A DNA stretch of 64,000 bases from an uncultured bacterium (GCA_964627205.1 CAZVHI010000009.1:33735-97734), one strand, 5' to 3'. Shown: positions 21,979-61,816, counted from the stretch's first letter. Numbers and translations: made by a program. The notes: a model not told the origin generated them from the sequence alone.

Positions 21979-22280
21979 GGGGTACCGCCTTTCCAGCAAC
22001 GCGAGAATAGATAGCAGCTCGCCCCTCGACTTCAAAGCGAAAGGGCCGGCATCCGCCGGCCCTTTCGCGGGAATTAGCCGGGGTGGAACCCGGCCACAGG
22101 TCAGCGCAGCAGGATGAGCAGGTCCCGGCCGGCGCGAACGCCTCGGCGAGCTACTCACCGACCCCTCCGGGGCGGCCGCCGGCGGCGAGCGGGACCGAGC
22201 CCAAGTGCTCGCGCACTACGCCTGGGACCGCGTCGCTGACCGCACCCTCGAGGTCTACCGCGAGCTGCGCCCTGATCCCC

Positions 22281-44525: not shown

Positions 44526-45056
44526 ATGAAGAGAATACTGGTTCTGCTGACCCTGCTGGCTGCCGTCGCAGCGCCGGCCTTGGCCGATCGGGACATGACG
44601 GGCAGCTGGGCGGAGATCCAGGCCCCCGCCATCGCCAATCCCGGCGACACCGTCGTCTTCAAGCTCTTTGTTTTCAACGGTAGTCCGGACCTCGAGTGGA
44701 CCCGGGAAGTGATCATCTACTTCCCCGAGAACTTCGACGTGCTGGACGGCTGGTACGACGACCTCGGCCAGGACTGGGCCTTCGACTTCAGCATCGACGG
44801 CTTCCACGGCAACATCGCCGTCTTCACCGACGCCGATGGCGGTTTCGGCGAGATCTACGACGGCACCGGCGGCGAATTCTACGCGCAGGTCTACCTGCAC
44901 GAGAACGTTGACTGCGGGCCCATCCACATCGACTGGAAGCAGTGGGGCGACGGCTACGGCAGCGACCCCCACTGGATCCGGGGCGAGCTGCCCTACGTGC
45001 TCTGCGTGATTCCGACCCAAGAGAGCAGCTGGTCGACGGTCAAGAGCCTGTACTAG
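44526..45056 (+). CDS. Small secreted protein (paralogue 1 of 2) ending in C-terminal SWSTVKSLY
   Basis: gGAGGGcatcATG start context identical to paralogue 2. Signal peptide MKRILVLLTLLAAVAAPALA. Conserved blocks shared with paralogue 2 (EW..E.II.FP, DADGG.GEIY.G.GG.F, PH...GE). Ends ...SSWSTVKSLY*. Confidence 0.75.
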   Translation: MKRILVLLTLLAAVAAPALADRDMTGSWAEIQAPAIANPGDTVVFKLFVFNGSPDLEWTREVIIYFPENFDVLDGWYDDLGQDWAFDFSIDGFHGNIAVFTDADGGFGEIYDGTGGEFYAQVYLHENVDCGPIHIDWKQWGDGYGSDPHWIRGELPYVLCVIPTQESSWSTVKSLY

Positions 45057-45345: not shown

Positions 45346-45885
45346 ATGAAGAAACTGTTTCTGACAGTCGCGGTGCTGGCTCTATTCGCAACACCAGCAC
45401 TGGCCGACCGCAGTATAGAGGGTAGTTACGTAGAACTTATCGAACCGCAGGGATTGCTCTGCGCGTGCTCGACCTATGAGTTCGTCTTCTACGTCTGGAA
45501 CAACTCCATGGATGTGGAGTGGATCGCCGAAATCATCATCACCTTCCCCGACTGCTGGGAGATCGTGGCCGGTTCCGACTGGTACACGCCGGATCCCGGC
45601 GCCGCGGGTCCCTTCAACTTCATGTTCATCGGTGGCGGTAACGTGGCCCACTGGGCGGACGCCGATGGAGGCTGGGGCGAGATCTACGGCGGCGAGGGTG
45701 GACACTTCGGCGTGACCGTTCACATCTGCCCCGACATGGTGGGCGATGTGCCGATCTACTGGGGCCTGCAGGGCGACATCTACGGCAACGAGCCGCACTA
45801 TGTCGACGGCGAAATCTGGGTCATTGTCTCCGACACCACACCAGTCGAGGACAGCACCTGGAGCAAGGTCAAGGGCCTCTACTAG
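45346..45885 (+). CDS. Small secreted protein (paralogue 2 of 2) ending in C-terminal TWSKVKGLY
   Basis: Signal peptide MKKLFLTVAVLALFATPALA. ~40% identity to paralogue 1 across the mature region. Ends ...DSTWSKVKGLY*. Confidence 0.75.
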   Translation: MKKLFLTVAVLALFATPALADRSIEGSYVELIEPQGLLCACSTYEFVFYVWNNSMDVEWIAEIIITFPDCWEIVAGSDWYTPDPGAAGPFNFMFIGGGNVAHWADADGGWGEIYGGEGGHFGVTVHICPDMVGDVPIYWGLQGDIYGNEPHYVDGEIWVIVSDTTPVEDSTWSKVKGLY

Positions 45886-45922: not shown

Positions 45923-45955
45923 AGCCGCTCCGGTTCTTCCGGAGCGGCTCTTTTT
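45923..45955. terminator. Rho-independent terminator (11-bp perfect stem, TTTTT tail) after paralogue 2, shared with the convergent giant gene
   Basis: AGCCGCTCCGG-ttctt-CCGGAGCGGCT followed by CTTTTTG. Confidence 0.7.
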
Positions 45956-46029: not shown

Positions 46030-49000
46030 CTAGTCGAGTGAGATGCGATAGAGCGCGCCGCCGTTGCAGCCGGCCCAGAGCGTGCGTCCGTCCTCGCCAA
46101 GACGCAGGTGCCAGACGGAGCCGTTGCCCGGGCGCATCCCAAACGGCGACCAGCTCGCGCCCGCGTCGCGGCTGACGAAGACGCCCCAGTGGTTCAGGCC
46201 GACATAGATCGTGCCCGCCTCGCTACCCGCAGCGATGGAGCGAGCGTGCGGACTTGGGATTCCCGCGTTCACCTCTTCCCAGCTCTCCCCGCCGTCGCGG
46301 CTGCGCAGCACACCGCCGCGCGAGACCGCCGCGTAGACGAGGGACGCGTCCTCCGCGTCGACCGCGAAGCCCTTGACGCCCGTGCGCGGGCGATTCCAGA
46401 CCTCGCGCCAGCTCTCCCCGCCGTCGTCGCTTATCAGAATTCCCTTCCCGTATGTGCCCAACAGCGCCTTGCCTTCGGCGCCCGGCAGGGCGATCACCGC
46501 GTAGGCGTCGACACGACCCGGTCCGGACTCGGGCCGCCGCCACTCGGCGCCCCGCTCCAGCCCGAGGTAGACACCGCCGCCGGGCCCCGAGGCGGCGGCG
46601 AGGAGGTCGCCATTCGGGAAGACGGCCAGCATGTTCGCGCGCAGCGTACCGAGCGCGTCGGTGGCTAGGATCCAGCTTTCGCCGCCGTTGTCCGAGCGAT
46701 ACACCCCATCCGCGCAGGCGGCGAAGAGGCGATGTGTCTCCTCGTCGAAGGCGAGGCTCCAGGCAAAGCTCTTCTCCGGCTCGGGCCCCGCGAAGATCCA
46801 TGCGTCCGTACTACTCCCGTGAGCGCGGGAAAACACGCCGCTCGACGTGGCCGCATAGAGGCGCGGCTCGCCCTGCCAACTCAGCTCCTCGAGCCACCAC
46901 ACCGACGCGGCGCCGAGGCCCGCGCTGCTCGGCGTCCAGCTCGCACCGGAGTTTACGCTTCGGGCTGCGCCGCTTCCCGTGGCGGCCAGCAGCGTGCCGT
47001 CCTCTCCACGCCACGCGAGTGCGCGCACAATAGGATCGGCGAGGCCCTCGCCTTGCAGATGCCAGGGCTCCGAGCCCTCGAGCCACGCGACGCCCTTCCC
47101 GTTGCAGGCAGCGGCGATCCTGCCCGCGCCGGGCTCGCGGTATAGGCGGTAGATGCCCACGCGCTCCAGACCGGGCGCGGCCTCGCGCCAGCTCAGCCCG
47201 CCGTCCGTGCTCTGGAAGACGCCGCTGGAGCTGCCGACGAGGATGCGCGCACCGCCGTCGGCGGCGAGGAGGTCCCAGACGGGGGTCTTGCCGAGGCCCT
47301 CGCCGTGGAGCTCCCAGCTTGCGCCGCGGTCGCGCGAGAGGTGGAAGTCGCCGCGCCCGCCGGCGAGGACGCGATCGCCCTCCTCGTCCAGCGGCAGGAG
47401 GCAGAGCACGCGCTCGCCGCTCGCGGAGCCGGAGGCCGGCTCCCAGTGCGCGCCGCGGTCGGCGCTGCGAAAGATCCCCTGCTCCGTGGCCGCGAGGACT
47501 TCATCACTCGCGGGCAGGACGAGCAGATCCCAGCAGCGCGGCGCGTCCCCGGGGTAGGCGCCGCGCTCCCAGTTCGCGCCGCCGTCCGCGCTGCGGAAGA
47601 CGCCACTCGAGCTGCCGACGTAGAGCAGGCCACTCGCGTCGCGGGCGAGGCAGGAGACCCAGTAGTTCTCCAGCGCAGCGCCGCGGGGCGCCCAGCTCTC
47701 GCCGAAGTCCGTGGACCGGAAGATGCCCGCCCCGTGCACGGCGGCGAGTACGGTATCGCCGCCGGCGAAGGCGAGCAAGTCGTGCAGCGCGCCGCCCGGC
47801 GGGGCCAGGACACGCTCCCAGGCCGGCGCCGCTACGACGGGGCGGGGTGTCGGGGAGGCGGCGGCGCGGGGGACGGGCGCGTCCGCAGCGCGAGGCGACG
47901 CGGCGGCGGTCCCCCGCCCGCGCAGCACGGCGATGTCGTCGCTGTGGTAGTTCGACACCACGACGTCGTCGAAACCGTCGCGGTCGAAGTCGCCCACGAC
48001 GAGCGACATGGGCGTGTTGTTCACGCCGTAGGCAGCGTCCAGGACGAAGGTGCCGTCACCTCTGCCCAGGAGTAGAAGCACGTTGTCGCCGTGGAAGTCG
48101 GCCACCGCGAGGTCGCTGTTGCCGTCGCGATCGAAGTCGCCGGGAGCGAGGTGGCGGGGGCGCACGCCACGGCTGCAGTCCGTGCCCGTGATGCGGCAGG
48201 ACGAGCCACCCGCCCAGCCGACGTCCGGCAGGTCCGACTCCGCGAAGGTGCCTTTGCCGTCCCCCGTCAGAATGATCACCTGCCCACCGAAGAAGTCGGC
48301 GACGGCCAGGTCGAGGTGCCTGTCGGCGTTCCAGTCGCCGGCGACGGCCGCGCGCGGGCCGAGGCCCACCGGCAGGCTCTCGCCGAGGCGGAAGGCGCCG
48401 CCTTCCTTCCCGAAGAGCAAGGTCAGCGTGGCGTCGTCGCGGCTGAGCACGGCCACGTCCTCGCGCCCGTCCTCGTCGAAGTCGCCCGCGACGAGGTAGC
48501 ACGCGGCCTTGCCGATCTCGCCGCCGAGCGGCTCGCCGAAGCTGCCGTCGCCGCGGCCGAGCAGCAGGGTGGCCGTGCCGCTCCAGTGGTTCGCCGCCAT
48601 GATGTCGAGCGCGCGGTCGCCATCGGCGTCGAGGGCGAGGAGGCCCCAGGGGCCGTCGCCCATCGGGATCGCCTCCGCTTCGGCGAGGGAGCCGTCCCCC
48701 GCGCCGCGGAGGAGCGTGAGGGTGTTGCGCTGGTGGTTCGCCGAGATCACGTCGCTCTTGCCGTCGGCGTCGAAGTCCGCCGCGCAGACGTACCAGGATT
48801 GTGCGCCGATCGGGAAGGAGCTCGCGAGTTCGAACGAGGCGCCAGTCCCCCCGAGGAGCAGGGACACCGATTGCCCGAAGAGGTTGCCCACGGCGAGGTC
48901 GGGCAGGTCGTCCCCGTCGAAGTGGGCGAGGGCGAGGGAGGTCGGGCCGTCGCCGGCGGGAAAAAGGGGCGCGACCGCGAAGCTGCCGTCGCCGATGCCG

Positions 49001-50166
49001 AAGGCCAGCGAGAGATTGTCGCTGTAGAGGTTCGCCACGAGGAGGTCTGCGTGCGTGTCGCCGTCCATGTCCGCGGCCGCGAGGACTACGGGCTGTTCCC
49101 CGACCACGACGCGCCCGGCCGGCGCGAAGCTGCCGTCGCCCCTGCCGAGGAAGCAGGCGACGGCGTGCTCCTTGCGAAGGGCGCAGGCGAAGTCCAGGCG
49201 CGTGTCGCCGTCGAGGTCTGCGAGCGCGATGGCTTCCGGCTCCTTGCCCACCGCGATCTCGCTCGCCCGCTCGAAGCCGCCGCCGGGCAGGCCCCGCAGC
49301 AACGTGACGGCGCCTTCCCTCTTGCCGAGGACAAGAAGGTCGAACAGAGCGTCTTCGTCGACGAGGCCGCTCGCCAGCGCGGAGATAGACATGCCGACGT
49401 CCAGCGCGAACATCTCCTCGAATCCGCCGTCGGCTCGGCCGCGGAGTATGCTGACGTGTTCCTTGATGGCGGAGCCGATCGCGAGATCGATAAGCCCGTC
49501 GCGGTCCCAGTCGCCCGCGAGCAGCACGCTCGCCAGCCAGCGATTGCCGAGGGAACGGATTTCCGTCCACGTCTCGCCGCGACCTGTCCCGGCCCGGGCG
49601 TCATCGGTCTCCGCCCCTGCGCTGGCGCCGTCTTCCCCGGGCCTTGCGCGATAGACAGCGACACCGCTCTCCTCCCGATCCAGGAGGACGAGCTCGAGCC
49701 ATCCGTCGCCGTCCAGGTCGACGGGACAGCAGAGGCCTGCCGGCGGAAGCCCTGTCATCGCCGAGGGCACCTCGAAGCCGCCCTCGGCGCCGACGCGGAG
49801 CAGCATCATGCCCTCTTCGGTCGCGAGGATCAGCTCGGGAAGGCCGTCGCCCTCGAGATCGAGGAGCCAGGCCTGGCGGGGGACGAAGTCCAGCTCGAGG
49901 CGCTCGCCGCGCGCGAGGAGGCCGCCCGTCTGTCCCTGGAAGAAGCGCAGCCCCTCGCGCTCCAGCACGACGACGTCGGGGCTGCCGTCGCGGTCCATGT
50001 CGGCGACGGCCAGCCAGCGGGGATCCTTGTCGGTCGGGTAGTCGATGCGGGCTTCGAGGAGGCCAGGGCGGGAGGCGGCGTCCCCTCCGCTCAGCGCGAG
50101 GAGACAGACGATCAGCAAGACTGAGGACAAGGCGATGCAGGGTCCGCGCGCGAGGGGCCCGGTCAA
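46030..50166 (-). CDS. Giant secreted protein (1378 aa): N-terminal FG-GAP/VCBS repeat region plus C-terminal BNR/Asp-box (sortilin/Ycf48-like) beta-propeller repeats
   Basis: Signal peptide (LSSVLLIVCLLALSGG). FG-GAP repeats (DFDADGKSDV, DFDEDGREDV, DFDRDGNSDL, DFDRDGFDDV). More than 8 BNR motifs (SxDGGESW, SRDAGASW, SDNGGESW). TTG start overlaps the TGA of the upstream membrane GT gene (TTGA). Confidence 0.75.
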   Translation of the reverse strand: MTGPLARGPCIALSSVLLIVCLLALSGGDAASRPGLLEARIDYPTDKDPRWLAVADMDRDGSPDVVVLEREGLRFFQGQTGGLLARGERLELDFVPRQAWLLDLEGDGLPELILATEEGMMLLRVGAEGGFEVPSAMTGLPPAGLCCPVDLDGDGWLELVLLDREESGVAVYRARPGEDGASAGAETDDARAGTGRGETWTEIRSLGNRWLASVLLAGDWDRDGLIDLAIGSAIKEHVSILRGRADGGFEEMFALDVGMSISALASGLVDEDALFDLLVLGKREGAVTLLRGLPGGGFERASEIAVGKEPEAIALADLDGDTRLDFACALRKEHAVACFLGRGDGSFAPAGRVVVGEQPVVLAAADMDGDTHADLLVANLYSDNLSLAFGIGDGSFAVAPLFPAGDGPTSLALAHFDGDDLPDLAVGNLFGQSVSLLLGGTGASFELASSFPIGAQSWYVCAADFDADGKSDVISANHQRNTLTLLRGAGDGSLAEAEAIPMGDGPWGLLALDADGDRALDIMAANHWSGTATLLLGRGDGSFGEPLGGEIGKAACYLVAGDFDEDGREDVAVLSRDDATLTLLFGKEGGAFRLGESLPVGLGPRAAVAGDWNADRHLDLAVADFFGGQVIILTGDGKGTFAESDLPDVGWAGGSSCRITGTDCSRGVRPRHLAPGDFDRDGNSDLAVADFHGDNVLLLLGRGDGTFVLDAAYGVNNTPMSLVVGDFDRDGFDDVVVSNYHSDDIAVLRGRGTAAASPRAADAPVPRAAASPTPRPVVAAPAWERVLAPPGGALHDLLAFAGGDTVLAAVHGAGIFRSTDFGESWAPRGAALENYWVSCLARDASGLLYVGSSSGVFRSADGGANWERGAYPGDAPRCWDLLVLPASDEVLAATEQGIFRSADRGAHWEPASGSASGERVLCLLPLDEEGDRVLAGGRGDFHLSRDRGASWELHGEGLGKTPVWDLLAADGGARILVGSSSGVFQSTDGGLSWREAAPGLERVGIYRLYREPGAGRIAAACNGKGVAWLEGSEPWHLQGEGLADPIVRALAWRGEDGTLLAATGSGAARSVNSGASWTPSSAGLGAASVWWLEELSWQGEPRLYAATSSGVFSRAHGSSTDAWIFAGPEPEKSFAWSLAFDEETHRLFAACADGVYRSDNGGESWILATDALGTLRANMLAVFPNGDLLAAASGPGGGVYLGLERGAEWRRPESGPGRVDAYAVIALPGAEGKALLGTYGKGILISDDGGESWREVWNRPRTGVKGFAVDAEDASLVYAAVSRGGVLRSRDGGESWEEVNAGIPSPHARSIAAGSEAGTIYVGLNHWGVFVSRDAGASWSPFGMRPGNGSVWHLRLGEDGRTLWAGCNGGALYRISLD

Positions 50167-51467
50167 CGCTGCACGTCCTCGTTCCGCTCCACGTCCTCAC
50201 TCCGCTCCACATCCCCGTTCAGCTCGAGGCTGCGGCGCTTGAGCTCCAGGAATCGCGCCTTCTTGGCCTGGGTCTCGGGCAGACGCGCCCTCTCCTCGTA
50301 GGCCTTGTCCAGGGTCGAGACGACGAAGACCGACGAGATGATGAAATAGGCGGGAACCAGCAGTGGCACTAGCCTGCGCGCGCCCCTCCCGACCAGCACG
50401 CGGAACATCTTCATGGTTCCCGTGGCGAGGATCAGGCAGAAGCCCGCCGAGGCCAGGTAGAGGTACTTCGTGTTCAGCCAGAAGCCTGGCGTGTAGAAGA
50501 AACAGAAGGGTAAAATGGTCACGAAGGCCCAGGCGATGAAGAAGCGCAGGGTCGTGTTGCCGAAGACGAAGCCGTAGGCGGCGTAGCTGAAGATCACGGT
50601 GCCCAGGATCGGCCGGATCCAGCTGCTCCAGTTGAAGAGGAAGGTGAGAAAGCCGCTGCCCTCCACGACGTCGGAATAGTGCAGCGGGTAGACCATGTGG
50701 ATCAGGTAGCCGGGAATGTTACTGAGGAAGTTGCCCAGGAAGAAACCGATCCCCCAGCCCTCGGGATAGGACGAGCTGACCGCCTTGAACGCGGCCCACT
50801 GGAAGCCGGTCAGGACGCCGCCGAACACGAGCAGGATCAGGATCGGCCCGGCGAGGACCGGACGCTGCCGCTCTTTCTTGAAGAATACGTTGTATGCGAG
50901 GAGCACGCCGATGCCGCTCAGGAAGGCGAACTTGTTGATGATCGAGAGGGCGAAGAAGAAGAGCGTGCCCGCGAACCAGACGGAGAGGATACGCCCCTTG
51001 CCCTGGGTCTCGTTCATCACGTAGAACATGACGGTCAGAAGGAAGACCGTGTGCATGAGGATGCCGCTCACACCCGCGGCGTACATCACCTCCTTACCGT
51101 AGTTGCCCACGGTGAACGCGAAGAGGATGGCGCTCAGGAAGGCCACGCCGAAGTCCCGCAGCGTCTGGTGGACGAGGAGGAAGAGGAGGAAGGCGTTGAT
51201 GGCGTGGATGAAGATGTTCAGCAGGTAGTAGCCCGCCGGCCTGTCGCCGAAGAGCGCGTACTCCAGGCGGTGGAAGCTGTTCACCAGCGGGTGGGCCTCG
51301 GAGGTGGCCTGGACGTAGTCCTCCTCCGGTTGCACGTCGAGACTCTTGGCCAGGTACTCGAACTCCGCGTCGGTCCAGAACTCGTTGTCGAGGATCTGGG
51401 CGAACAGCAGCACGCTGATCCCGAACAGGATCAGGAAGAGCAACGCATTGTTGTCTTTGAGCGACAT
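50163..51467 (-). CDS. Polytopic membrane protein, TMTC/DUF1736-like GT-C glycosyltransferase family (paralogue of 19249-20742)
   Basis: Multiple TM helices. Loop motif VNSFHRLEYALFGDRPAGYYLLNIFIHAINAFLLFLLV. ATG at 51467; the long N-terminal Arg-rich extension in the ORF track was rejected. Translationally coupled to the giant gene. Confidence 0.65.
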   Translation of the reverse strand: MSLKDNNALLFLILFGISVLLFAQILDNEFWTDAEFEYLAKSLDVQPEEDYVQATSEAHPLVNSFHRLEYALFGDRPAGYYLLNIFIHAINAFLLFLLVHQTLRDFGVAFLSAILFAFTVGNYGKEVMYAAGVSGILMHTVFLLTVMFYVMNETQGKGRILSVWFAGTLFFFALSIINKFAFLSGIGVLLAYNVFFKKERQRPVLAGPILILLVFGGVLTGFQWAAFKAVSSSYPEGWGIGFFLGNFLSNIPGYLIHMVYPLHYSDVVEGSGFLTFLFNWSSWIRPILGTVIFSYAAYGFVFGNTTLRFFIAWAFVTILPFCFFYTPGFWLNTKYLYLASAGFCLILATGTMKMFRVLVGRGARRLVPLLVPAYFIISSVFVVSTLDKAYEERARLPETQAKKARFLELKRRSLELNGDVERSEDVERNEDVQR

Positions 51468-51529: not shown

Positions 51530-52765
51530 GTGTTTCGTGACCGCAACCTCCTCCTCCTCGCCGGAGGCCAGTTCGCCAGCCGCCTGGGGGACTCGAGCTT
51601 TCACATCGCACTGATCTGGCTGGCCAAGGAGCTGACCGGCTCGAAGCAGGCCATGGGCTTCGTGGCGATGATGGAGTACCTTCCCATCCTGCTCTTCGGC
51701 ATGTTGGCGGGTGTGGTCGTGGACCGCAGCGACCGGCGGCGGTTGATGCTGGCCGCCAGCCTCTTCCGCACCCTGCTGATGCTCGCAGTGCCGGTCGCCT
51801 TCCTGCTCGGTTACCGCGGCATCGCCGTGGGCACCGCCGCCGCATTCGGGCTGGCGTTGGCTACCAGCCTCTTCACCCCCGCCCGCGACGCCCTGGTGCC
51901 CGTCATCGTGGGCCGCGGCGACCGCATCTCCGCCAACGCGCTCGTGCAGGTCTCCGATCAGTTCGCCTGGCTGCTGGGGCCGCTCGTCTACCCTCTGCTC
52001 GTGCCCCTGCTCGGGCTGACGCCCGCCTTCGCCGGCCCCGCGTTGATCTTCTTCGTGAGTTGGCTCGCGCTGCTCGCGATGCGCAGCCCCGAGAGCGTGC
52101 CGAGGCGCGAGAGCCCCGAGGCCCTGCTGCGCGGCGCCGAGGCCGGCAGCGTGCCGGCCGGACAGGTCGCCTGGCGAGAGCTGCGGGCCGGGCTATCCCT
52201 CGCCTGGGGCCGGCGCGAGCTCCGCTGGCTGCTCATCCTCACGGCCGTGAACAACTTCTTCATCATGGGACCCGCCCTGGTGGCCATGCCCGCCTATATC
52301 GGCTTCGACCTCGGGCTGCCCGCCCTCTACCTGGGCATCATCGAGTCGGTGCTGGCCGCGGGGATGATCGTGTCGTCTGTCGCGATCATCCGCTGGCGTC
52401 CGCGCATCGGGCTGGGGACCATGTGGCTGCTCGGCATGACGCTCGACGGCCTCACCTACGTCCCCATGCTCCTCGCCCCGAGCTTCGCCTGGCTCGTGCC
52501 GCTGATCTTCTTCCACGCGCTCTTCATCCCCTGGATCACGGTCTTCCGCATCAGCATCGTGCAGGAGGTGGTGGCGCCCGAGCTGCAGGGGCGCGCCTTC
52601 GCCTTCGTCGGCATGGCAGTGGTCGGGATGACGGCCCTGGCAAGCGGCGTGACCGGGCTACTTCTGGGCCTCATCCCCACGCACATCCTCTTCGGCGCCT
52701 GGGGTTTTGCCGGCATGTGCTGCGGCCTGGTCGGCTGGCTCGTGCCCAGCCTCCGTCGCCTATGA
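51530..52765 (+). CDS. MFS transporter
   Basis: 12-TM-like hydrophobic profile. MFS signature region (GVVVDRSDRRRLM). GTG start. Confidence 0.75.
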   Translation: MFRDRNLLLLAGGQFASRLGDSSFHIALIWLAKELTGSKQAMGFVAMMEYLPILLFGMLAGVVVDRSDRRRLMLAASLFRTLLMLAVPVAFLLGYRGIAVGTAAAFGLALATSLFTPARDALVPVIVGRGDRISANALVQVSDQFAWLLGPLVYPLLVPLLGLTPAFAGPALIFFVSWLALLAMRSPESVPRRESPEALLRGAEAGSVPAGQVAWRELRAGLSLAWGRRELRWLLILTAVNNFFIMGPALVAMPAYIGFDLGLPALYLGIIESVLAAGMIVSSVAIIRWRPRIGLGTMWLLGMTLDGLTYVPMLLAPSFAWLVPLIFFHALFIPWITVFRISIVQEVVAPELQGRAFAFVGMAVVGMTALASGVTGLLLGLIPTHILFGAWGFAGMCCGLVGWLVPSLRRL

Positions 52766-52782: not shown

Positions 52783-54726
52783 TCAGGGGTGTCGGTGCTG
52801 AAGGCCACCCGCGGGCAGATCCGGAGCGCGACCGGACCCTCCCTCCGCGAGGAAGAGATCGCACCATATCTTCAGTGTCAGAGCCCGCATGATCAGAGAG
52901 GAGCTGCCCACCCACTTGTAACTCAGCGTCCGCTTGCGCAGGAAGGGCCGGGCCAGGTTGTAGAGCGTGTAGTTACTGAGGATGCTTTGGCTCAGGAGGT
53001 CACGCGGGCTGAAGGCCTTGAGCTTGGCCAAGCCCCCCATTCCCTGGAAGGCTTTGGCATTGGCATAGCTCGATTCCTCAGCCCGGATCGCCTTGGAGCG
53101 GAACTCGCCCAGGAAACGCTTCAGCTTCGTACCGTCGAAGAGCGAGTCGAAGATCGGGTGGGAAGACGCGAGGAGGATCCGATCGATGAAGTCGCGGACG
53201 CGGGGGGAGTCGCGATACACCTGCTCCCAGTCGGGCAGGTTTCCCGCCCGGGAGAGATTCATGGCGAAGACCCGGGGGTAGCCCGCCACAACCGTTTCAC
53301 GGAACAGGCTGCGGTACATCCTGTGCCGGTAGGGCAGCCTGGCCATGAACTCCAGGATCTCCTTGTCCAGCAGCGGGACCCGCACGTCGATGACCAGCGA
53401 CTTCAGGTAGTTCATCCGACCCCAGAAGTTGGGAACGCCCTGCTGGAAGACGAACCAGTCCTTGCGGTCCACAAGCCTACGGTTCGGGCAGGCGCTGCTG
53501 AGCTTTCCGAGGCCCTGCACCGTCTCGTCATGCAAGCGCGGGAAGGCGTCATCGGTCAGCATGTCGCGGTAGAGCTGCGGTAAGACGATCAGGTTGAAAC
53601 AGGCGAGGGCATCCTGCTCGTGGAAGACGCCGCCCTTCCAACCGAAGAGCTCATCTCCACGCAGGATGACGTCGGCCTTCTCTGCGGTGCGTTGGTAGAC
53701 CGCCAGGCCCTCCGGATAATTCCCCAGCTGATCGATCAGGCCGTCGCTGATGAAGACCATCTGCTCGAGGTGCTCGTTCAGGCGGTCCGTTAGCAGGGGG
53801 ATGGACTCGTGCTCCAGGCCGAGACTGGCGCTGAGCTCCTCGGCGATGACTTGGTCGGAGAAGGGCCGAGGTTGGCCAGCACTCTGCGTCACGGTGGTGA
53901 TCTTCGCTCCCGCCTCGAGACAGGCGCCTAGAATACAGCGGGAATCGTAGCCCCCGCTGAGAGCGACGGCGATCCGTTTCGTGTTGCGATCACGGATCCG
54001 ACGCCTGACCGCCCTGTCAATCAGATCCAGCAGCTCCTCGCGGTAGTGACGCGCGCTGCGCCTGGCCGCCTTCTCGTCGAACCGGAAGCGCCAGTATTGT
54101 GATTCCCGATGCGAACCGGAGGATAGATCCACGGTCAGCAGGGTAGCGGGAGGGAGCTGCCGGATCTTCTCGAAGAAGGTCTCCTCGAACAGCGTCAGGC
54201 CGGTGGCCAGGAAGCTGGCGATGGCGGCCTCGTTGTATGGCTGCGCCTGGCCGGAGACCAGCAGCAGGGCCTTGACTTCGGGGGCGAAGTAGAGCACGCC
54301 GTCATGCTCGGTCACAAAAAGGGGATGGGAGGAGGTGATGTCGTTGGCGAGCAGGAGGCCTGCCCGTTTCGGGTCGTGCAGGGCGAGGGCGAAGGAGCCG
54401 TCCAGCGAGGCGAGGGCGGCGGGCGCGTCCTCTGCGAGCGCGTGAGCCAGCTCCAACCCCACCGGATCGCCGAGAACGTCCCGGTTCCCGAGGCGATAGA
54501 ACTCGCCCGCGAGGAAGAGGGAGCACGGCCTCTCGGGCTCGTGGCAGGGAAAGGACTCCCCGTCTCCGCGATGGATCCTCGCTATTGCGAACTGTTCGCT
54601 GCAGTACCTGTCGCTCTGGAGGGATTGACCATAGTCGAGAAGGGAGCACATCCGAGCCAGGGTCGAGTCGAGCTTCTCACGGCCCAGCCTACTCTGCGGA
54701 TCGACAATGCCCAGCAGCCCTGGCAT
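52783..54726 (-). CDS. Asparagine synthetase (AsnB) family amidotransferase lacking the N-terminal catalytic Cys (MPGLLGIV instead of MCGIAGI)
   Basis: PP-loop SGGYDSR. AsnB-like N-domain (LGIVDP..., FAIARIHRGDGES). Cys to Pro at the nucleophile position. Start could instead be 54828. Confidence 0.65.
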   Translation of the reverse strand: MPGLLGIVDPQSRLGREKLDSTLARMCSLLDYGQSLQSDRYCSEQFAIARIHRGDGESFPCHEPERPCSLFLAGEFYRLGNRDVLGDPVGLELAHALAEDAPAALASLDGSFALALHDPKRAGLLLANDITSSHPLFVTEHDGVLYFAPEVKALLLVSGQAQPYNEAAIASFLATGLTLFEETFFEKIRQLPPATLLTVDLSSGSHRESQYWRFRFDEKAARRSARHYREELLDLIDRAVRRRIRDRNTKRIAVALSGGYDSRCILGACLEAGAKITTVTQSAGQPRPFSDQVIAEELSASLGLEHESIPLLTDRLNEHLEQMVFISDGLIDQLGNYPEGLAVYQRTAEKADVILRGDELFGWKGGVFHEQDALACFNLIVLPQLYRDMLTDDAFPRLHDETVQGLGKLSSACPNRRLVDRKDWFVFQQGVPNFWGRMNYLKSLVIDVRVPLLDKEILEFMARLPYRHRMYRSLFRETVVAGYPRVFAMNLSRAGNLPDWEQVYRDSPRVRDFIDRILLASSHPIFDSLFDGTKLKRFLGEFRSKAIRAEESSYANAKAFQGMGGLAKLKAFSPRDLLSQSILSNYTLYNLARPFLRKRTLSYKWVGSSSLIMRALTLKIWCDLFLAEGGSGRAPDLPAGGLQHRHP

Positions 54727-54963
54727 CCCTTTACCCGTATCGATCAGAAACCCTTCACCCTGACGGACCGCCCTCTGGATTCCACTTAACGACGGGCGTC
54801 GCCGCACTGGTTTCTCATTCATCAGCATAGGGATCGGCGCCCCGACTTGGCAAGCTCTATGTATTCAATTCGATACAGCTGGATAACACGGCTCACGCAT
54901 CCTCATGGCGACGGCCTAGCCGAACGCTTGTGCCCGGCCCACGCGCGTGCTAGTTCTTGCGCC

Positions 54964-56433
54964 ATGGACAAGATCACGGACCTGCGCGACTTCATCGCCC
55001 TGCTCGAGCAACGCGGCGAGCTGATCCGCATCACCGAGCCGGTCAGCCGCGACCTCGAGATCACGGAGATCGTGGACCGCACCGTCAAGGCGGGCGGCCC
55101 CGCACTGCTGTTCACGAACGTGACGGGTTACCGCACACCGCTGGCCATCAACCTCCTCGGCACGGAGAGGCGCATGGCCTGGGCGCTTGGCGCCGAGAGC
55201 CTGGAGGAGGTGGCCGACCGCGTCGAGGCGCTGATCCGGACGGCACCACCGGCCGACTGGAAGGAGAAGCTCCGCCTGCTGCCGAAGCTCGCTGGGCTGA
55301 CGAAGGCCCTGCCGAAGACCGTGAGCCGAGCCCCCTGCCAGGAGGTCGTGCTCGCGGGAGACGACATCAACCTGGACGTCATGCCCGCCCAGCTCTGCTG
55401 GCCCGGAGACGGCGGCCGCTACATCACGCAGACGCAGGTCTTCACCCGCGATCCGGCGACGGGCGAGCGCAACGTGGGCATGTACCGCGTCCAGATCTTC
55501 GATCGCGACACCTGCGGCATGCACTGGCAGACGCACAAGGTGGGCGCGCAGCATCACAGGAGCGCCGAGGAACGCGGCGCGCGCATCGAGGCGGCGATCG
55601 CGCTGGGCGGCCACCCCGCCATGATCTATTCCGCGAGCGCGCCCCTGCCCGAGGGGTTGGACGAGTGCCTTCTTGCCGGCTTCCTCGCCGGGCGTCCCAT
55701 CGAGCTTGTGCAGGCGAAGACCGTGGACCTGCTCGTACCCGCCGAGGCCGAGTACGTGATCGAGGGCTACCTGGACCCAGGCGAGCGCCGCCTGGAGGGG
55801 CCCTTCGGCGACCACACCGGCTACTACTCGCTGGCCGAGGACTACCCCGTCCTCCACGTGACGGCGATCACGCATCGCCGCGATCCCGTCTACCCGAGCA
55901 TCGTCGTGGGTCCGCCGCTGCAGGAGGACGGCCCCATGGGCAAGGCCACCGAGCGCATCTTCCTGCCACTGATCCGCGCGCAGTTCCCGGAGATCGTGGA
56001 CATGCACCTACCCGTGGAGGGCGTGTTCCACAACCTCGCGCTGGTCGCCATCAAGAAGCGCTACCCGGGACACGCGCGGAAGATCATGCAGGCGATCTGG
56101 GGCACGGGGCAGCTGATGTTCAGCAAGGTCGTCATCGTGGTCGACGACGACGTGGACGTGCAGAACCTCGCCGAGGTGGTCTGGCGCGTGACGGCGAACA
56201 TCGATCCCAAGCGCGACGCGGTCTTCGCGGACGGCATCACCGACGTGCTCGACCACGCCAGCGACCGCATCGGCCTGAGCGGCAAGATGGGCATCGACGC
56301 CACGCGCAAGTGGCCGGAGGAGGGCTTCCCCCGCGAGTGGCCGGAGGTGCTGCGCATGGACGAGAGCGTCCGCAGCCAAGTCGACGAGATGTGGCCGCGT
56401 CTCGGGATACACCTGCCGGGCCGCGAGGACTGA
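54964..56433 (+). CDS. ubiD: UbiD-family prenyl-FMN-dependent decarboxylase (futalosine-pathway MqnL/MqnM-type or UbiD)
   Basis: N-terminus MDKITDLRDFIALLEQRGELIRI is a canonical UbiD start. ~490 aa. Confidence 0.85.
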   Translation: MDKITDLRDFIALLEQRGELIRITEPVSRDLEITEIVDRTVKAGGPALLFTNVTGYRTPLAINLLGTERRMAWALGAESLEEVADRVEALIRTAPPADWKEKLRLLPKLAGLTKALPKTVSRAPCQEVVLAGDDINLDVMPAQLCWPGDGGRYITQTQVFTRDPATGERNVGMYRVQIFDRDTCGMHWQTHKVGAQHHRSAEERGARIEAAIALGGHPAMIYSASAPLPEGLDECLLAGFLAGRPIELVQAKTVDLLVPAEAEYVIEGYLDPGERRLEGPFGDHTGYYSLAEDYPVLHVTAITHRRDPVYPSIVVGPPLQEDGPMGKATERIFLPLIRAQFPEIVDMHLPVEGVFHNLALVAIKKRYPGHARKIMQAIWGTGQLMFSKVVIVVDDDVDVQNLAEVVWRVTANIDPKRDAVFADGITDVLDHASDRIGLSGKMGIDATRKWPEEGFPREWPEVLRMDESVRSQVDEMWPRLGIHLPGRED

Positions 56434-56435
56434 GC

Positions 56436-57224
56436 GTGTCCGCCGCCGATCCCCGCGCGCGCCCCGCGCGCGTCGAGCCCGCACCCGCCGGCGACGCGGG
56501 CGAATCCGGCGGCGCATCGGGCAGCGCGTCGGAGAAGCGCGAGGCCGTTCGCCGCATGTTCGCGGCCATCACCCCGAGCTACGACCGGCTCAACCATCTG
56601 CTCAGCTTCAGCCGCGACCGGCGCTGGCGGCGCCGCGCCGTGGCGATGTTCTCGCCGGGGGTGAGGCGAGTGCTCGACGTGGCCGCGGGCACCGGCGACC
56701 TGGCGGCGGCCTGGCTGCGGGACAGGCCAGGCACCGAGGTCCTGGCCACGGACTTCGTCGCCGAGATGTGCGCGGCGGGCGCGGCCAAGCTGGGCGGCGA
56801 GGTCGGCCACCTGGGCTGCGCCCGGGCCGACGCGCTGGCCCTGCCCTTCGCAGACACCAGCTTCGACGGCGCCATGGCCGCCTTCGGCGTGCGCAACTTC
56901 GTAGGTTTGGAGACGGGGATCGCCGAGATGGCCCGCGTGCTGCGCCCCGCCGGCGAGATCCTGGTCCTGGAATTCTTCCCCTCGCGCAGCGCGATCCTCG
57001 ACCGCCTCTTCCGCTTCTACTTCCACCGAGTCCTGCCGCGTGTGGGCGCCTGGATCTCGCGGGACCGGAAAGCATATTCCTATCTGCCCCGCAGCGTGGA
57101 GGGTTTCGTCACGCGCGAGGAGTTCACGGCCCTGCTCGAGAGGCTCGGCTTCCGCGAGATCCGCCAGCGGGACTTCGACGGCGGCATCGCCACCGCCTTC
57201 CACGCCGTGCGCAGCGCGGGCTGA
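56436..57224 (+). CDS. ubiE: Demethylmenaquinone/ubiquinone C-methyltransferase
   Basis: MFAAITPSYDRLNHLLSFSRDRRWRR plus the SAM-binding motif VLDVAAGTGD. GTG start 3 nt after the ubiD stop. Confidence 0.8.
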   Translation: MSAADPRARPARVEPAPAGDAGESGGASGSASEKREAVRRMFAAITPSYDRLNHLLSFSRDRRWRRRAVAMFSPGVRRVLDVAAGTGDLAAAWLRDRPGTEVLATDFVAEMCAAGAAKLGGEVGHLGCARADALALPFADTSFDGAMAAFGVRNFVGLETGIAEMARVLRPAGEILVLEFFPSRSAILDRLFRFYFHRVLPRVGAWISRDRKAYSYLPRSVEGFVTREEFTALLERLGFREIRQRDFDGGIATAFHAVRSAG

Positions 57225-57229
57225 GTCGC

Positions 57230-58162
57230 ATGCCCGAGCTACCTGAAGTGGAGAACGTCGCACGAGTCCTACGCGCGACGCTATTGGGTCGTCGCCTGGA
57301 CGGCATCCGCGTGCGCTTCGCGGGCGCGCTGAAGCCTTCGCCCCGGGTGGTGCGGCGGGCCCTGCAGGGCTCGCGCCTCGTCGGCGTGCGCCGCCACGGC
57401 AAGTATCTCCTCCTCGACTTCGCGCGGGAGCTCGACGCCGGCGAAGCGCTCGCCGGGGGCTCTGCCGCTGTCGTCGCGGAGCCGGCGGCGGCCTACGGCC
57501 CCGGTCCCCCGCCCGGCGCAGAGAACGTGCTCCTCTTGCACCTGCGCATGACCGGCCAGGTCTTCGTCGATCCAGGTTACCGCCCCGACAAGCACCTGCG
57601 CCTTGTCTTCGACTTCGAGGGCCTCCCGGTCCACTACCGCGATCTGCGCAAGTTCGGCGGCTTCACGCTCCTCGCTCCGGGCGAGGAGGCAAGCGCCCTG
57701 GCACGGGTCGGCCCCGACATGCTCGCGATCTCCTTCGCGGAATGGGAAAGGCGTCTGGCAGGCCGACGCGCGCCGCTCAAGTCGCTGCTGCTCGACCAGC
57801 GCATCGCGGCCGGGCTCGGAAACATCTACGCGGACGAGGCCCTCCACCGCGCGGGTGTGAACCCCCTTGCCGCGCCGCGGGATCTGGAGGGCGACACCCT
57901 ACGACGCGTGTGGCGCGAGGCGAGGCGTGTCCTCCGCCTGGGCATCCGCCACGGCGGTACGACCTTCCTCGACTTCGTGGATTTCACGGGAAAGCCCGGG
58001 AGGTTCCGGCGCAAGCTGAGGGTCTACGGCCGCGGGGGCGAGCCCTGCGCGACCTGCGGCACGGCGATCGAGAAGCGCAAGGTCGGGGGGCGCGGCACGC
58101 ACTATTGCCCGCGCTGTCAGCCCCCACCAAGGTGGGCCAGGTTCTCCCGGGCGCGCTCGTAG
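57230..58162 (+). CDS. fpg: Formamidopyrimidine-DNA glycosylase (MutM)
   Basis: Canonical N-terminus MPELPEVE. C-terminal zinc finger CATCGTAIEKRKVGGRGTHYCPRCQ. Confidence 0.85.
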   Translation: MPELPEVENVARVLRATLLGRRLDGIRVRFAGALKPSPRVVRRALQGSRLVGVRRHGKYLLLDFARELDAGEALAGGSAAVVAEPAAAYGPGPPPGAENVLLLHLRMTGQVFVDPGYRPDKHLRLVFDFEGLPVHYRDLRKFGGFTLLAPGEEASALARVGPDMLAISFAEWERRLAGRRAPLKSLLLDQRIAAGLGNIYADEALHRAGVNPLAAPRDLEGDTLRRVWREARRVLRLGIRHGGTTFLDFVDFTGKPGRFRRKLRVYGRGGEPCATCGTAIEKRKVGGRGTHYCPRCQPPPRWARFSRARS

Positions 58163-58246
58163 CCGGGATCCAGCTCCAGCGGCGCACCTCCGGACCAGAT
58201 CAGAGTGAAGCGAACGCCCCGGAGTATAGCGGCGGGGTTGAAACGC

Positions 58247-59095
58247 TCACAAGCCCGCGGGTTCGGGCAGAGGCTCAGCCGGGAAGCCAGCGGCGCTCAG
58301 GAAGCGGTCCAGTCCGGCAACATAGTCCGCGCGCGAGACGAGCCAGCCGTCGTCATGCCCGCCATGGATCGCGAGGAAGCGCTTCGGCTCCGCCGCCGCA
58401 TTGTGCAGCCTGCGGCCCATCGCGAAGGGCACGACCTCATCCTCGTGCGCGTGAACGAAGAGCTTGGGCACACCGATCTCCCCGACGCGGGACAGCGAGT
58501 CGAAGCGGTGGCGCAGCAGCGGACGGACCGGTAGCCACGGGTAGACCCGCCGGCCGAGATCGGCAGCTGAGGTGAAGGCGGACTCGATCACGAGCGCGCC
58601 GGGGCGCACACGGCTCGCCAGCTCGATCGCCACAGCGGCGCCGAGGGAGCGGCCGTGGATCGCGATCCGCTCCGGCGCCAGCCCTCGCTCGCCGGTCAGG
58701 TGGCGCCAGGCCGCCGCGGCGTCGGCGTAGAGGCCCGCCTCGCTCGGCTCGCCCCCACTGCGCCCGTAGCCCCGGTACTCGAGGGCCAGGACGCTGAAGC
58801 CGAGCTCGTGGAGGAAGCGTAGAAACTCTACGCGGTGAGATAGGTTGCCCGCGTTGCCGTGGCAGAAGAGCAGCGTGCCGCGCGCTTCTTCCGTGGGAAG
58901 GAACCAGGCGTGGACACGGTGGCCGTCCGCCGTCTCCAGGAACACGTCTTCGTATGCAAGACCCGAGGCGGCCGGCGTGGCGAAGAGCCGGCGCTCGGGA
59001 AAGAAGATGAGGCGGCCCTGCTGCAGCCAGACCAGCAGGCAGACAAGCAGGTAGGCTGCGAGGAGAACGGCAAGGCCGATCACCAGCGGGCGCAT
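58247..59095 (-). CDS. Alpha/beta hydrolase (Bem46/YqiA-like), membrane-anchored
   Basis: N-terminal TM helix. GxSxG (HGRSLGA). HGNAGN oxyanion region. Confidence 0.7.
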   Translation of the reverse strand: MRPLVIGLAVLLAAYLLVCLLVWLQQGRLIFFPERRLFATPAASGLAYEDVFLETADGHRVHAWFLPTEEARGTLLFCHGNAGNLSHRVEFLRFLHELGFSVLALEYRGYGRSGGEPSEAGLYADAAAAWRHLTGERGLAPERIAIHGRSLGAAVAIELASRVRPGALVIESAFTSAADLGRRVYPWLPVRPLLRHRFDSLSRVGEIGVPKLFVHAHEDEVVPFAMGRRLHNAAAEPKRFLAIHGGHDDGWLVSRADYVAGLDRFLSAAGFPAEPLPEPAGL

Positions 59096-59219
59096 GGCTC
59101 TCCTTCCCCGCGTTCGCCCGGATCCCGGGCAGCAACGCGGGTCCGATTCTACACGAAGAAACGCCCATCGCAAGCGGTCAGCGATCCTGCTATCTTCTGC
59201 GGAGCCCGGGAGGTTTTCC

Positions 59220-59873
59220 TTGTCCGCACCCGCAGCGAACACGCCCGACGGACTCCGCGCCATCGTCGCTCTCACCGGCGCCAGCGCGACCCCCTACGCC
59301 TTCCGCCTGCTGGCCCTCATGGTAGGCCACGGCGTTGGCGCCGAGCTCATGGCCAGCGAGAATGTCGACGAGCTCTGCCGCGTCGAGCTGGGCCGCGGTC
59401 TGGACGATGAGCTCGCAAGCATCTACGGCCGCACGATCGCCCCCGGCGAGAGCTTCGGGAAGGCGCGTGGCGGCGGCCCGCTCGTTCGCCGCCACGGCCT
59501 GCGCGACTTCGCCGCAGCGGCAGCCAGCGGCAGCGGCCGCGCCCTGCCCATGGTCGTCGTCCCCTGCTCCACGGGCACCCTGGGCCGCATCGCCGCCGGG
59601 GTGAGCGACAACCTCATCACCCGCTCGGCCGACGTCTGTCTCAAGGAAAGGCGGCGCCTGGTCCTCGTGCCCCGGGAGACCCCCCTCGGCGCGATCCACC
59701 TGGAGAACATGCTGCGCCTGACCCGCGCCGGCGCCGTGGTCCTGCCCGCGAGCCCCGGCTTCTACCAGGGAGGCGAGACCGTCGACCAATTGCTGGACTT
59801 CATCGTGAGGCGCATCACCCAGCAGCTCGGCCTCGCGATCGACACCGGTCCCGGCTGGGGGGAGGACGCGTGA
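59220..59873 (+). CDS. ubiX: UbiX-family flavin prenyltransferase (prFMN synthase)
   Basis: HFCD flavoprotein motifs (IVALTGASATPYAFRLL, VVVPCSTGTLGRIAAG). Putative TTG start with GGGAGG RBS. Stop overlaps the ubiA GTG (GTGA). Confidence 0.75.
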   Translation: MSAPAANTPDGLRAIVALTGASATPYAFRLLALMVGHGVGAELMASENVDELCRVELGRGLDDELASIYGRTIAPGESFGKARGGGPLVRRHGLRDFAAAAASGSGRALPMVVVPCSTGTLGRIAAGVSDNLITRSADVCLKERRRLVLVPRETPLGAIHLENMLRLTRAGAVVLPASPGFYQGGETVDQLLDFIVRRITQQLGLAIDTGPGWGEDA

Positions 59874-60811
59874 ACACGGGCCGTGTCGGACGGGACACGG
59901 GAGCCGAGGCTGCCGCAGCGGACCCCCGGCCTCAGGGTTTCTTCGCCCGCCTGGCGACCGTGCTGGACATGATCCAGTTCGCCCACACGCTCTTCGCCCT
60001 GCCCTTCGCTCTGCTGGGCGCTGCCCTCGCCGCCCGCTGGGCGCCAGTCCCCGGCTTTCCGGGCTGGAGACCCCTACTGTGGATCCTGGCCTGCATGGTC
60101 ACGGCCCGCAGCGCGGCCATGGCCTACAATCGCCTCGCGGACCGGGACGTGGACGCCGAGAATCCCCGCACCGCCGCCCGCGCCATCCCGGCGGGACGCC
60201 TCGGCCCGCGCTGGGTGGCCGTCTTCGTAACTATCAATGCTATCTTGTTTGTTTACTTTGCTTTTCAGCTGAATCCCCTGGCTGGCCGGCTGAGCCCCTT
60301 CGCCCTGGCCTGGATCCTCGCTTACTCGCACACGAAGCGCTTCTTCTCGGGCTCCCACTTCTGGCTCGGCGCCTCCCTGGCCCTGGCGCCCCTGGGGGCC
60401 TGGATCGCGGTCCGGGGAGAGCTGACCGGCGCCCCTTGGCTGGCGGCCCTGGCGGTCCTCCTCTGGGTCGCGGGTTTCGACATCATCTACGCTTGTCAGG
60501 ATCTCGACTTCGACCGTCGGCGGGGCCTCCGCTCCCTCGGCGCCCGGCTCGGGGCCCCGGCGGCCCTGCGCCTGGCCGCCCTCTGCCATCTGCTGGCCTC
60601 GGCCGCCCTCCTGGGCTTCGGCCTCCGCCGCGGCTTCGGCCTTCCCTATCACTCCGGCTGGGTCTTGGCCTCGCTCTTGCTGGTCTGGGAGCATAAGGTG
60701 GTGCGCGGCGGGGATTTGTCTCGGATCGACCTGGCCTTCTTCCGGATCAACAGCTGGGTAGGGGTCATCGTCTTCCTGGCCGCCCTTCTCGACATCGTGT
60801 TGGCGCGCTGA
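59870..60811 (+). CDS. ubiA: UbiA-family aromatic prenyltransferase (MqnP/UbiA)
   Basis: NRLADRDVDAEN (NDxxDxxxD-type) and a second Asp-rich motif DIIYACQDLDFD. Multi-TM. Confidence 0.8.
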   Translation: MNTGRVGRDTGAEAAAADPRPQGFFARLATVLDMIQFAHTLFALPFALLGAALAARWAPVPGFPGWRPLLWILACMVTARSAAMAYNRLADRDVDAENPRTAARAIPAGRLGPRWVAVFVTINAILFVYFAFQLNPLAGRLSPFALAWILAYSHTKRFFSGSHFWLGASLALAPLGAWIAVRGELTGAPWLAALAVLLWVAGFDIIYACQDLDFDRRRGLRSLGARLGAPAALRLAALCHLLASAALLGFGLRRGFGLPYHSGWVLASLLLVWEHKVVRGGDLSRIDLAFFRINSWVGVIVFLAALLDIVLAR

Positions 60812-60945
60812 ATCTTGCGGCCGGAGGGCCGCTACCGGCGAGCCAAATGCCTGCTTGCGAGATACCCGGGCTTGCCATAGCATGTCCGCGCCCGCGCCCC
60901 GCCGGGCCGGAGCGTATTGCCGGGTGAGAGAAAAAGGAGACGAGC

Positions 60946-61809: not shown

Positions 61810-61816
61810 GGGGCCC

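Follow-up and report, generated by a model that had tools for sequence, protein, structure and literature searches.

The closest known systems to the protein considered here are the eukaryotic TMTC O-mannosyltransferases (TMTC1-4, family GT105, which combine Pfam TMTC_DUF1736 with TPR repeats) together with uncharacterised bacterial full-length homologues (PMC7801869); ArnT and the PMT_2 family come next. The ligand site of TMTCs is marked by seven motifs, M1 to M7, which read DD, SHKSYRP, RxD, KE(T/Q)xxT, DW, PxxP, and ERxxY. RxD has been assigned to mannose and KE to metal and phosphate binding (PMC7801869). We analysed a stretch of DNA of 64,000 nucleotides from an uncultured bacterium (GCA_964627205.1 CAZVHI010000009.1:33735-97734), referred to here as the window, which has about 70% G+C and which the source names attached to homologues and loci place in Candidatus Krumholzibacteriia. 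Its minus strand encodes a 434-residue membrane protein that we call MpA (positions 50163-51467; ATG at 51467, TGA at 50165-50163) and, next to it, a secreted protein of 1378 residues that we call the giant protein (46030-50166). A preliminary description of this DNA had placed both open reading frames correctly, and had proposed that MpA is a TMTC/DUF1736/PMT-like glycosyltransferase of the GT-C superfamily that forms a dedicated O-glycosylation pair with the giant protein. In our analysis MpA is probably a TPR-less GT-C protein of the TMTC-like/PMT_2 kind that is found across a clade of Krumholzibacteriia, and the giant gene is a local insertion and not its conserved partner.

The related set comprises 10 distinct loci, each covering 21 kb around an MpA homologue, which were obtained from long contigs and from one genome per species and searched with the window's proteins (tblastn, E<=1e-5) over 10 kb on each side of MpA. 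The MpA proteins of these 10 Krumholzibacteriia loci are 57-73% identical to that of the window, and none of the loci contains the giant gene. All ten share the other neighbours. A divergent gene for an MFS transporter is separated from MpA by some 55-70 bp, or by about 250 bp in a single locus, and one to three genes of a family of small proteins (about 175-185 residues), here called the S family, are convergent to MpA and lie about 60-130 bp past its stop. UbiD and UbiE genes stand behind the MFS gene in 8 of the 9 loci that were tested for them. The order in the window's population is UbiE, UbiD, an asparagine-synthase-like gene, MFS, MpA, the giant gene, and the S-family genes S183 and S176. 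By parsimony, this lineage acquired two of these genes, the giant and the asparagine-synthase-like gene, by insertion. No population other than the window's own has the giant gene. It is regarded as a lineage insertion because it is absent from the 10 related loci and because both the repeat at its junction with MpA and the tail of MpA are lineage-specific. The converse search gave the same answer, as no GT-C gene of the MpA superfamily was present in 80 loci (645 kb) that encode relatives of the propeller half of the giant protein. The preliminary description had set conservation of the pairing as a test, and on this test the dedicated pair fails.

The two genes meet in the sequence TTGA (50163-50166, minus strand), where the TGA stop of MpA overlaps a candidate TTG start of the giant gene. 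An in-frame TGA at 50199-50197 makes an earlier start impossible, and this TTG (50166-50164) is the first start codon that follows it. An alternative TTG at 50118-50116 lies 16 codons later and would leave a gap of 45 nucleotides to MpA. Only the TTG at 50166 yields a normal signal peptide with a charged n-region, and it has a GAGGA 9 nucleotides upstream. Public gene calls on identical contigs give the giant protein 1378 residues, with the overlap, in one assembly and 1362 residues in two. The overlap noticed earlier is therefore present and is probably the real start of the giant gene; it is probable and not established because two of the three public gene calls start 16 codons downstream. 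Directly before it stands an 18-nucleotide tandem repeat (50167-50225, minus strand; 3.3 copies with 80% matches, Tandem Repeats Finder score 76), which codes for a lineage-specific tail of MpA (GDVERS/EDVERN/EDVQR, about the last 15 codons) and also supplies the GAGGA Shine-Dalgarno-like site of the giant gene. The tail makes MpA 13-17 residues longer than nearly all of its relatives and is missing from all 24 homologues. The giant gene would have entered between MpA and the S-family genes, with the 18-nucleotide repeat extending the tail of MpA and giving rise to the TTGA overlap as well as to a ribosome-binding site. When direct repeats were sought on either side of the giant gene, only its own internal repeats appeared, which have periods of 147 and 129 nucleotides. 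MpA and the giant gene are probably co-transcribed in this lineage, since they lie on the same strand at most 45 nucleotides apart, with no terminator-like site between them and none until a hairpin at 45923-45949 (plus strand; an 11-bp stem followed by a T-run), which is situated where S183 and the giant gene, running towards each other, both end. This would be a local arrangement that reflects where the gene landed. Overlaps of 4 nucleotides between stop and start are common in operons, and hence the overlap is no proof of a relation between enzyme and substrate.

The giant protein is itself an ordinary union of two very common repeat types. It starts with a signal peptide (about residues 1-30; MTGPLARGPC, a hydrophobic core, then ALSGG/DAAS), which is followed by FG-GAP/VCBS repeats (about residues 40-750; 47917-50049, minus strand), a Pro/Ala/Ser-rich linker (about residues 750-800), and an Asp-box/BNR propeller region (residues 812-1378; 46033-47733, minus strand). 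Pfam matches are strong for FG-GAP_3 (210 bits, E 6e-63, 13 stretches) and FG-GAP (74 bits, 7 stretches), and extend to BNR (59 bits), Sortilin-Vps10 (51 bits), and Ycf48-like models. The NCBIfam model F510_1955, a glycosylhydrolase model, scores 157, under its cut-off of 175. Nine D-x-D-x-D-G motifs that resemble Ca-binding loops fall in residues 56-734 and ten Asp-boxes in residues 818 to 1339, so that the fusion of an FG-GAP region to an Asp-box propeller is borne out, as is the lack of a C-terminal anchor, since no C-terminal sorting domain was detected. The best 120 matches to the full-length protein are generic FG-GAP proteins with 24-59% coverage and 24-38% identity. Their alignments, with identities near 30%, are confined to the FG-GAP half, and no full-length orthologue is among them; the query's own protein is unlisted too, perhaps due to repeat saturation. 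Because generic FG-GAP proteins swamped this search, the BNR half was searched separately against 241 million metagenome records, in which its relatives are at 21-36% identity and none is above. Known FG-GAP/VCBS and BNR/Asp-box proteins, such as those of the Sortilin-Vps10, Ycf48, and F510_1955 families, thus resemble the giant protein in their repeats, whereas the fusion has no orthologue among the matches found.

The family of MpA is visible only at the level of profiles and folds. Scans of Pfam and NCBIfam with a cut-off as loose as E<=1 assign no glycosyltransferase family to MpA or to a second membrane protein of the window, MpB (497 residues; 19249-20742, minus strand). This holds for TMTC_DUF1736 (PF08409), which covers the loop between transmembrane helices 7 and 8, and for PMT_2 (PF13231), of which neither protein reaches the gathering threshold; a Pfam scan found no TPR match in either. 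A word-indexed search with MpA returned only 26 proteins, all hypothetical and none with a Pfam domain, of which 25 are at 56-73% identity. The homologues comprise Krumholzibacteriia proteins at 57-73% identity plus one at 37%. A profile of the MpA family compared with 1.84 billion cluster representatives matched 8505 proteins at E<=1e-3. Among 50 matches that were sampled, 31 have C-terminal TPR repeats and 7 match PMT_2; the match P0110 exceeds the TMTC_DUF1736 threshold, and P0097 has weak similarity to PMT. The homologue P0029 also has weak similarity to PMT_2. When the MpA family was aligned by local hhalign with the membrane domains (first 440 residues) of 45 bacterial TPR-bearing homologues, the probability was 100% (E 1.9e-42, 374 columns). 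A search of solved structures with the MpA profile found nothing, and the 50-sequence profile was swamped by TPR proteins. An AlphaFold2 model of MpA (predicted local distance difference test, pLDDT, 77; predicted TM-score 0.79) was compared with the PDB by Foldseek. The best ten matches are all GT-C proteins, each with a probability of at least 0.94, and include STT3A, STT3B, AglB, AftA, Pmt4, ArnT (rank 7), EmbB, DPY19, and Pmt1/2. The model comparison points to membership of the GT-C superfamily and no more. Taken with the profiles, MpA and MpB belong to the TMTC-like/PMT_2 branch of this superfamily. The assignment made in the preliminary description hence stands at the level of profile and fold and lapses at the level of a direct family match. 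MpA is a divergent TPR-less variant of the bacterial TMTC-like family. It is not filed as a TMTC because the TPR domain, a direct DUF1736 match, and motifs M3 and M4 are all missing.

The ATG start of MpA is backed by an alignment with 24 homologues, all of which open with M-x-[LIF]-[KRAQS]-[DEN]-[NS]-[KNR]. If the positive-inside rule is applied to the modelled helices, MpA would have 11 transmembrane helices with the N-terminus inside and the C-terminus outside, a predicted topology that would equal that of the homologous membrane domain of TMTC1-4. In the model its C-terminal part is a single charged helix (residues 397-433), which would face outside, where TMTCs carry the TPR domain. ArnT (GT83; lipid A aminoarabinose transferase, PDB 5ezm) has the GT-C fold as well; MpA differs in its predicted 11 rather than 13 helices and in lacking the periplasmic C-terminal domain. 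The top structural matches also include STT3/AglB/PglB, PMT1/2, and Pmt4, GT-C enzymes whose first external loop bears a catalytic acid. At 11-16% identity, and with no large periplasmic or luminal domain, WWDYG motif, or MIR domain in MpA, the likeness to these oligosaccharyltransferases and PMTs is of superfamily level only.

Both proteins were mapped to the seven TMTC motifs in a 50-sequence alignment. At DD (M1, loop 1) MpA has A34-E35, where the second Asp of the motif corresponds to E35 (codon 51365-51363); within the MpA family the first position is variable and E35 has a conservation of at least 90%. At SHKSYRP (M2, loop 1) the YRP part is A-H59-P60, with only the Pro kept. RxD (M3, loop 2) is lost and replaced by a family-specific VGNYGKE...GVSG with an insertion of one residue. 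KE(T/Q)xxT (M4, loop 3) is lost too, with N178-K179 in its place, and ERxxY (M7, loop 5) is kept as T-K334-Y-L-Y337. For DW (M5) and PxxP (M6) the assignment in MpA is uncertain. MpA retains the segment E-Y..F-G..P-x-G-Y..N...H..N. What it has in common with TMTC-like proteins is EY.lFG.nP.GY..N.llH.lN (loop 1 to transmembrane helix 2), Y..(x)P (loop 4), and [RK]-Y-L-Y (loop 5). Loop 1 is strongly conserved in the homologue alignment; N28, E69, and N122 are invariant, and E35 and H59 near-invariant. The motif R-P...N-x-L-H-x-x-N-A, earlier ascribed to the first periplasmic loop of MpA, is there in approximate form only, with H-P for R-P and N84-x3-H88-x2-N91-A92, and the N84-A92 segment lies in transmembrane helix 2 and not in the loop.

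MpB is a distant relative of MpA and far more canonical. It keeps DD as N-D-D-F, the end of M2 as F-R-P, M4 as K-E-T, and M7 as S-R-Y-Y-Y; at M3 the Arg is kept and the Asp has become Thr. It is TPR-less as well, with a non-TPR C-terminal tail of about 100 residues. Of the motif ascribed to both proteins MpB has the R-P, with N-x3-H-x2-T-A in the remainder. It matches the 45 TPR-bearing membrane domains at an hhalign probability of 99.8% (E 4.9e-28) and the MpA family at 95.9% (E 6.4e-9). It is 23% identical to MpA (pairwise E 7e-4), so that it can be called a paralogue, as it had been, only loosely. The gene upstream of MpB (20953-22158, minus strand) has no Pfam match, and its VLFIGNSLT resembles by eye the GDSL motif of SGNH hydrolases.

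More distant MpA-like genes provide further context. P0033 (799 residues; E 1e-84 to the MpA profile) fuses an N-terminal GT4 domain of GT-B fold to a C-terminal MpA-like GT-C domain. P0027 (E 1e-121) has genes for a DegT (PglE-like) aminotransferase and a Polysacc_synt_2 (PglF-like) dehydratase upstream on the same strand, and is followed by a GDSL hydrolase gene (L098 3600-4574). At the P0028 locus (L017 5079-8503) the MpA-like gene overlaps an upstream Methyltransf_11 gene, with a UbiE-type methyltransferase gene divergent just upstream, and is convergent with a canonical TMTC-like gene that bears HP..E.V...RRADL and SKE. These contexts support a role in sugar transfer for the subfamily without pointing to the acceptor. 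P0027, P0028, and P0033 show the same motif losses as MpA. Hence MpA represents a TPR-less subfamily with a rebuilt site and not a lone copy in decay.

Several observations weigh against the interpretation given here. MpA lacks a direct match in Pfam and NCBIfam, and its model reaches only moderate Foldseek scores (E 3.6e-4 to 0.1, with a TM-score of about 0.45). It lacks the RxD and KE motifs, and therefore its activity is not assured. At position 329 (codon 50481-50483, minus strand), in the last periplasmic loop (PGDWLNTKYLY), the copy in the window is alone in having Phe, whereas the 24 homologues all have Asp; D329F is its sole private change at an otherwise invariant column. The choice of insertion in this lineage over loss elsewhere rests on parsimony over 10 loci, and as these were covered for 10 kb on each side of MpA, an orthologue of the giant gene may exist elsewhere in those genomes. 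D329F occurs in the same lineage that gained the giant gene downstream.

The genes next to MpA in all relatives are of two kinds. S183 (45346-45885, plus strand) encodes a small secreted protein that ends with ...STWSKVKGLY, and S176 (44526-45056, plus strand; ...SSWSTVKSLY) is its tandem paralogue with 41% identity; every relative has members of this family immediately past the end of MpA, in convergent orientation. The model of S183 (pLDDT 86) is an Ig-like beta-sandwich with a short C-terminal helix, and its fold matches are generic (pilins, integrin calf domains, cohesins). S183 and S176 have no Pfam or NCBIfam family, and the 10 members detected are all without a functional name. Wherever matches to the MpA and S families carry a source name, it is that of an uncultured bacterium, and no phylum other than Krumholzibacteriota is given. 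The S-family alignment has an invariant N-x-S (N52 and S54 of S183), and its members close with a conserved [ST]x[WF]Sx[VIL]KxLY directly before the stop. Two further invariant stretches, DADGGWGEIYGGEGG and QGDIYGNEPH, are Gly/Asp-rich loops reminiscent of metal-binding ones; the conserved residues of these loops in S183 are D105, G109, G111, and Y114, and G143, D144, Y146, G147, P150, and H151.

The conserved end of the S family is also found elsewhere. In the window, [ST]x[WF]Sx[VIL]Kx[LM]Y before a stop is present at 45859-45882 and 45030-45053 (both plus strand), 27075-27098 (minus), and 2815-2838 (plus), and one of the four carriers has 15 extra residues past it. In related loci it is found at L001 64-981 and 12162-12878, L002 2564-3490, and L003 5339-6280. 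The carriers are unrelated; besides the S family there are a beta-helix/Chlam_PMP protein, PPC-domain proteins, and an InhA-like MAM protein. The end is absent from the giant protein. This C-terminal tag contains no transmembrane helix and in S183 is predicted to be helical. It has the look of a signal for sorting or anchoring that is specific to the clade and has not been described before. The tag was considered as a clue to the substrate of MpA and rejected as specific evidence, as four proteins in the 64-kb window carry it. Because it ends unrelated secreted proteins, it is common to the clade and does not mark clients of MpA.

On the other side of MpA, the divergent MFS_1/MFS_3 transporter gene (51530-52765, plus strand) starts after a gap of 62 bp, an arrangement kept in all relatives. 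The protein also matches an H+-antiporter subfamily model and has weak similarity to Mef, EntS, and LplT (LplT/Aas lipid transporters). MFS, UbiD, and UbiE are tightly spaced on one strand in relatives, which suggests an operon headed by the transporter, and because the MFS gene heads this string it need not serve MpA. In the window an asparagine-synthase-like amidotransferase gene (52783-54828, minus strand; Asn_synthase and GATase_7), the second lineage-specific insertion, lies between MFS and UbiD, which adjoin in most relatives. This amidotransferase has sub-threshold similarity to lasso-peptide and macrolactam cyclases. Beyond MFS, at about 52800-64000 (L013 1-6504), are late menaquinone genes of the futalosine route (VitK2_biosynth, UbiA, a UbiX-like flavoprotein, UbiE, and UbiD). 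A link of MpA with menaquinone synthesis was prompted by UbiE and UbiD near MFS and MpA in nearly all relatives and by the UbiE-type gene beside P0028. It was dropped as a general rule since P0027 stands in a sugar-nucleotide cluster and P0029 and P0030, on short contigs, have no such neighbour. A specific module of MFS, MpA, and S genes was likewise weakened, because the conserved block reaches UbiD and UbiE. Where the window is annotated, it shows no gene for a donor synthase.

Under the preferred reading, MpA would be an inner-membrane protein whose conserved polar loops are exposed to the periplasm, and on that side it would pass a sugar from polyprenyl phosphate, its carrier, on to an acceptor. 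As judged by the alignment, E35 may be the catalytic acid/base, in a site without the canonical metal/phosphate (KE) and RxD residues. The acceptors may quite possibly be envelope or secreted proteins in general, a view that we take only tentatively. That MpA is instead the dedicated O-glycosyltransferase of the giant protein, with translational coupling ensuring joint synthesis, we regard as highly improbable. The genes do share a strand and a TTGA overlap or a gap of at most 45 nucleotides with no terminator between them, a Pro/Ala/Ser-rich linker is part of the secreted giant protein, and eukaryotic members of the family of MpA O-mannosylate proteins (PMC7801869). However, the giant gene is missing from 10 of 10 related loci though MpA stays 57-73% identical, the matches to the giant protein include no orthologue and in no case does a GT-C gene of this kind lie close to one of its relatives, the two genes are joined by a tandem repeat specific to the lineage, and MpA lacks the TPR domain that is thought to recruit protein acceptors. 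Quite unlikely, if less so, is that MpA glycosylates the adjoining Ig-like S proteins, as TMTC and TMEM260 do with cadherin/IPT-type domains, and that the giant protein may be an added client. One to three S-family genes lie directly downstream and convergent in all ten relatives, both families are named only from uncultured bacteria with Krumholzibacteriota as the sole phylum, and S183 is a confident beta-sandwich with an invariant N-x-S and a conserved tag that contains Ser and Trp. Yet the conserved block also holds UbiE and UbiD, so adjacency may be inherited gene order; convergent genes are not co-transcribed; distant MpA-like genes have no S-family neighbour; and the tag, on four proteins of the window, is not specific to the neighbours of MpA. 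In its fullest form, the MpA clade would be a new class of TPR-less bacterial protein glycosyltransferases with a rebuilt site that modifies S proteins (e.g., at N-x-S or the tag), and in this lineage the giant gene would have been drawn into the MpA transcript as an extra client. We consider this very unlikely; if true, it would be a bacterial counterpart of the mannosylation of Ig-like domains by TMTC and TMEM260.

A non-protein acceptor in the envelope, such as a lipid A-like lipid, a glycolipid, or a polysaccharide, is possible but doubtful. MpA would then act like ArnT, and the MFS protein, which is weakly similar to the LplT/Aas lipid transporters, might move the lipid. ArnT is the closest solved relative of the TMTC membrane domains (PMC7801869) and is among the fold matches of MpA. 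The absence of TPR repeats fits such a role, as do the distant MpA-like genes, which are either fused to GT4 or located in clusters for sugar nucleotides or polysaccharides. On the other hand, the MFS gene heads the UbiD/UbiE string in relatives and need not serve MpA, and the conserved block is without lipid A or polysaccharide genes. It is unlikely that MpA is a catalytically dead protein of GT-C fold that now serves as a scaffold or binds lipid. This would explain the loss of RxD, KE, and the first Asp of DD across the MpA-like subfamily and D329F in the window's copy, but it does not agree with the many conserved polar loop residues (N28, E69, N122, E35, and H59) and the strongly conserved loop 1, or with the glycan-related gene contexts of the relatives. 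Yeast PMTs work without a metal site, which also speaks against a dead MpA.

Bacterial relatives of TMTCs are numerous, as seen from the 8505 cluster representatives that match the MpA profile. A conserved gene pair of enzyme and substrate would have offered a way into this family, and the locus of MpA and the giant gene provides none. It is instead a clean example that an overlap of stop and start is, by itself, weak evidence of a functional partnership. A remaining point of value is the C-terminal tag that is common on the secreted proteins of this uncultured phylum. The compact TPR-less subfamily of MpA, with its altered active-site residues, is useful for asking which of the TMTC motifs are essential.

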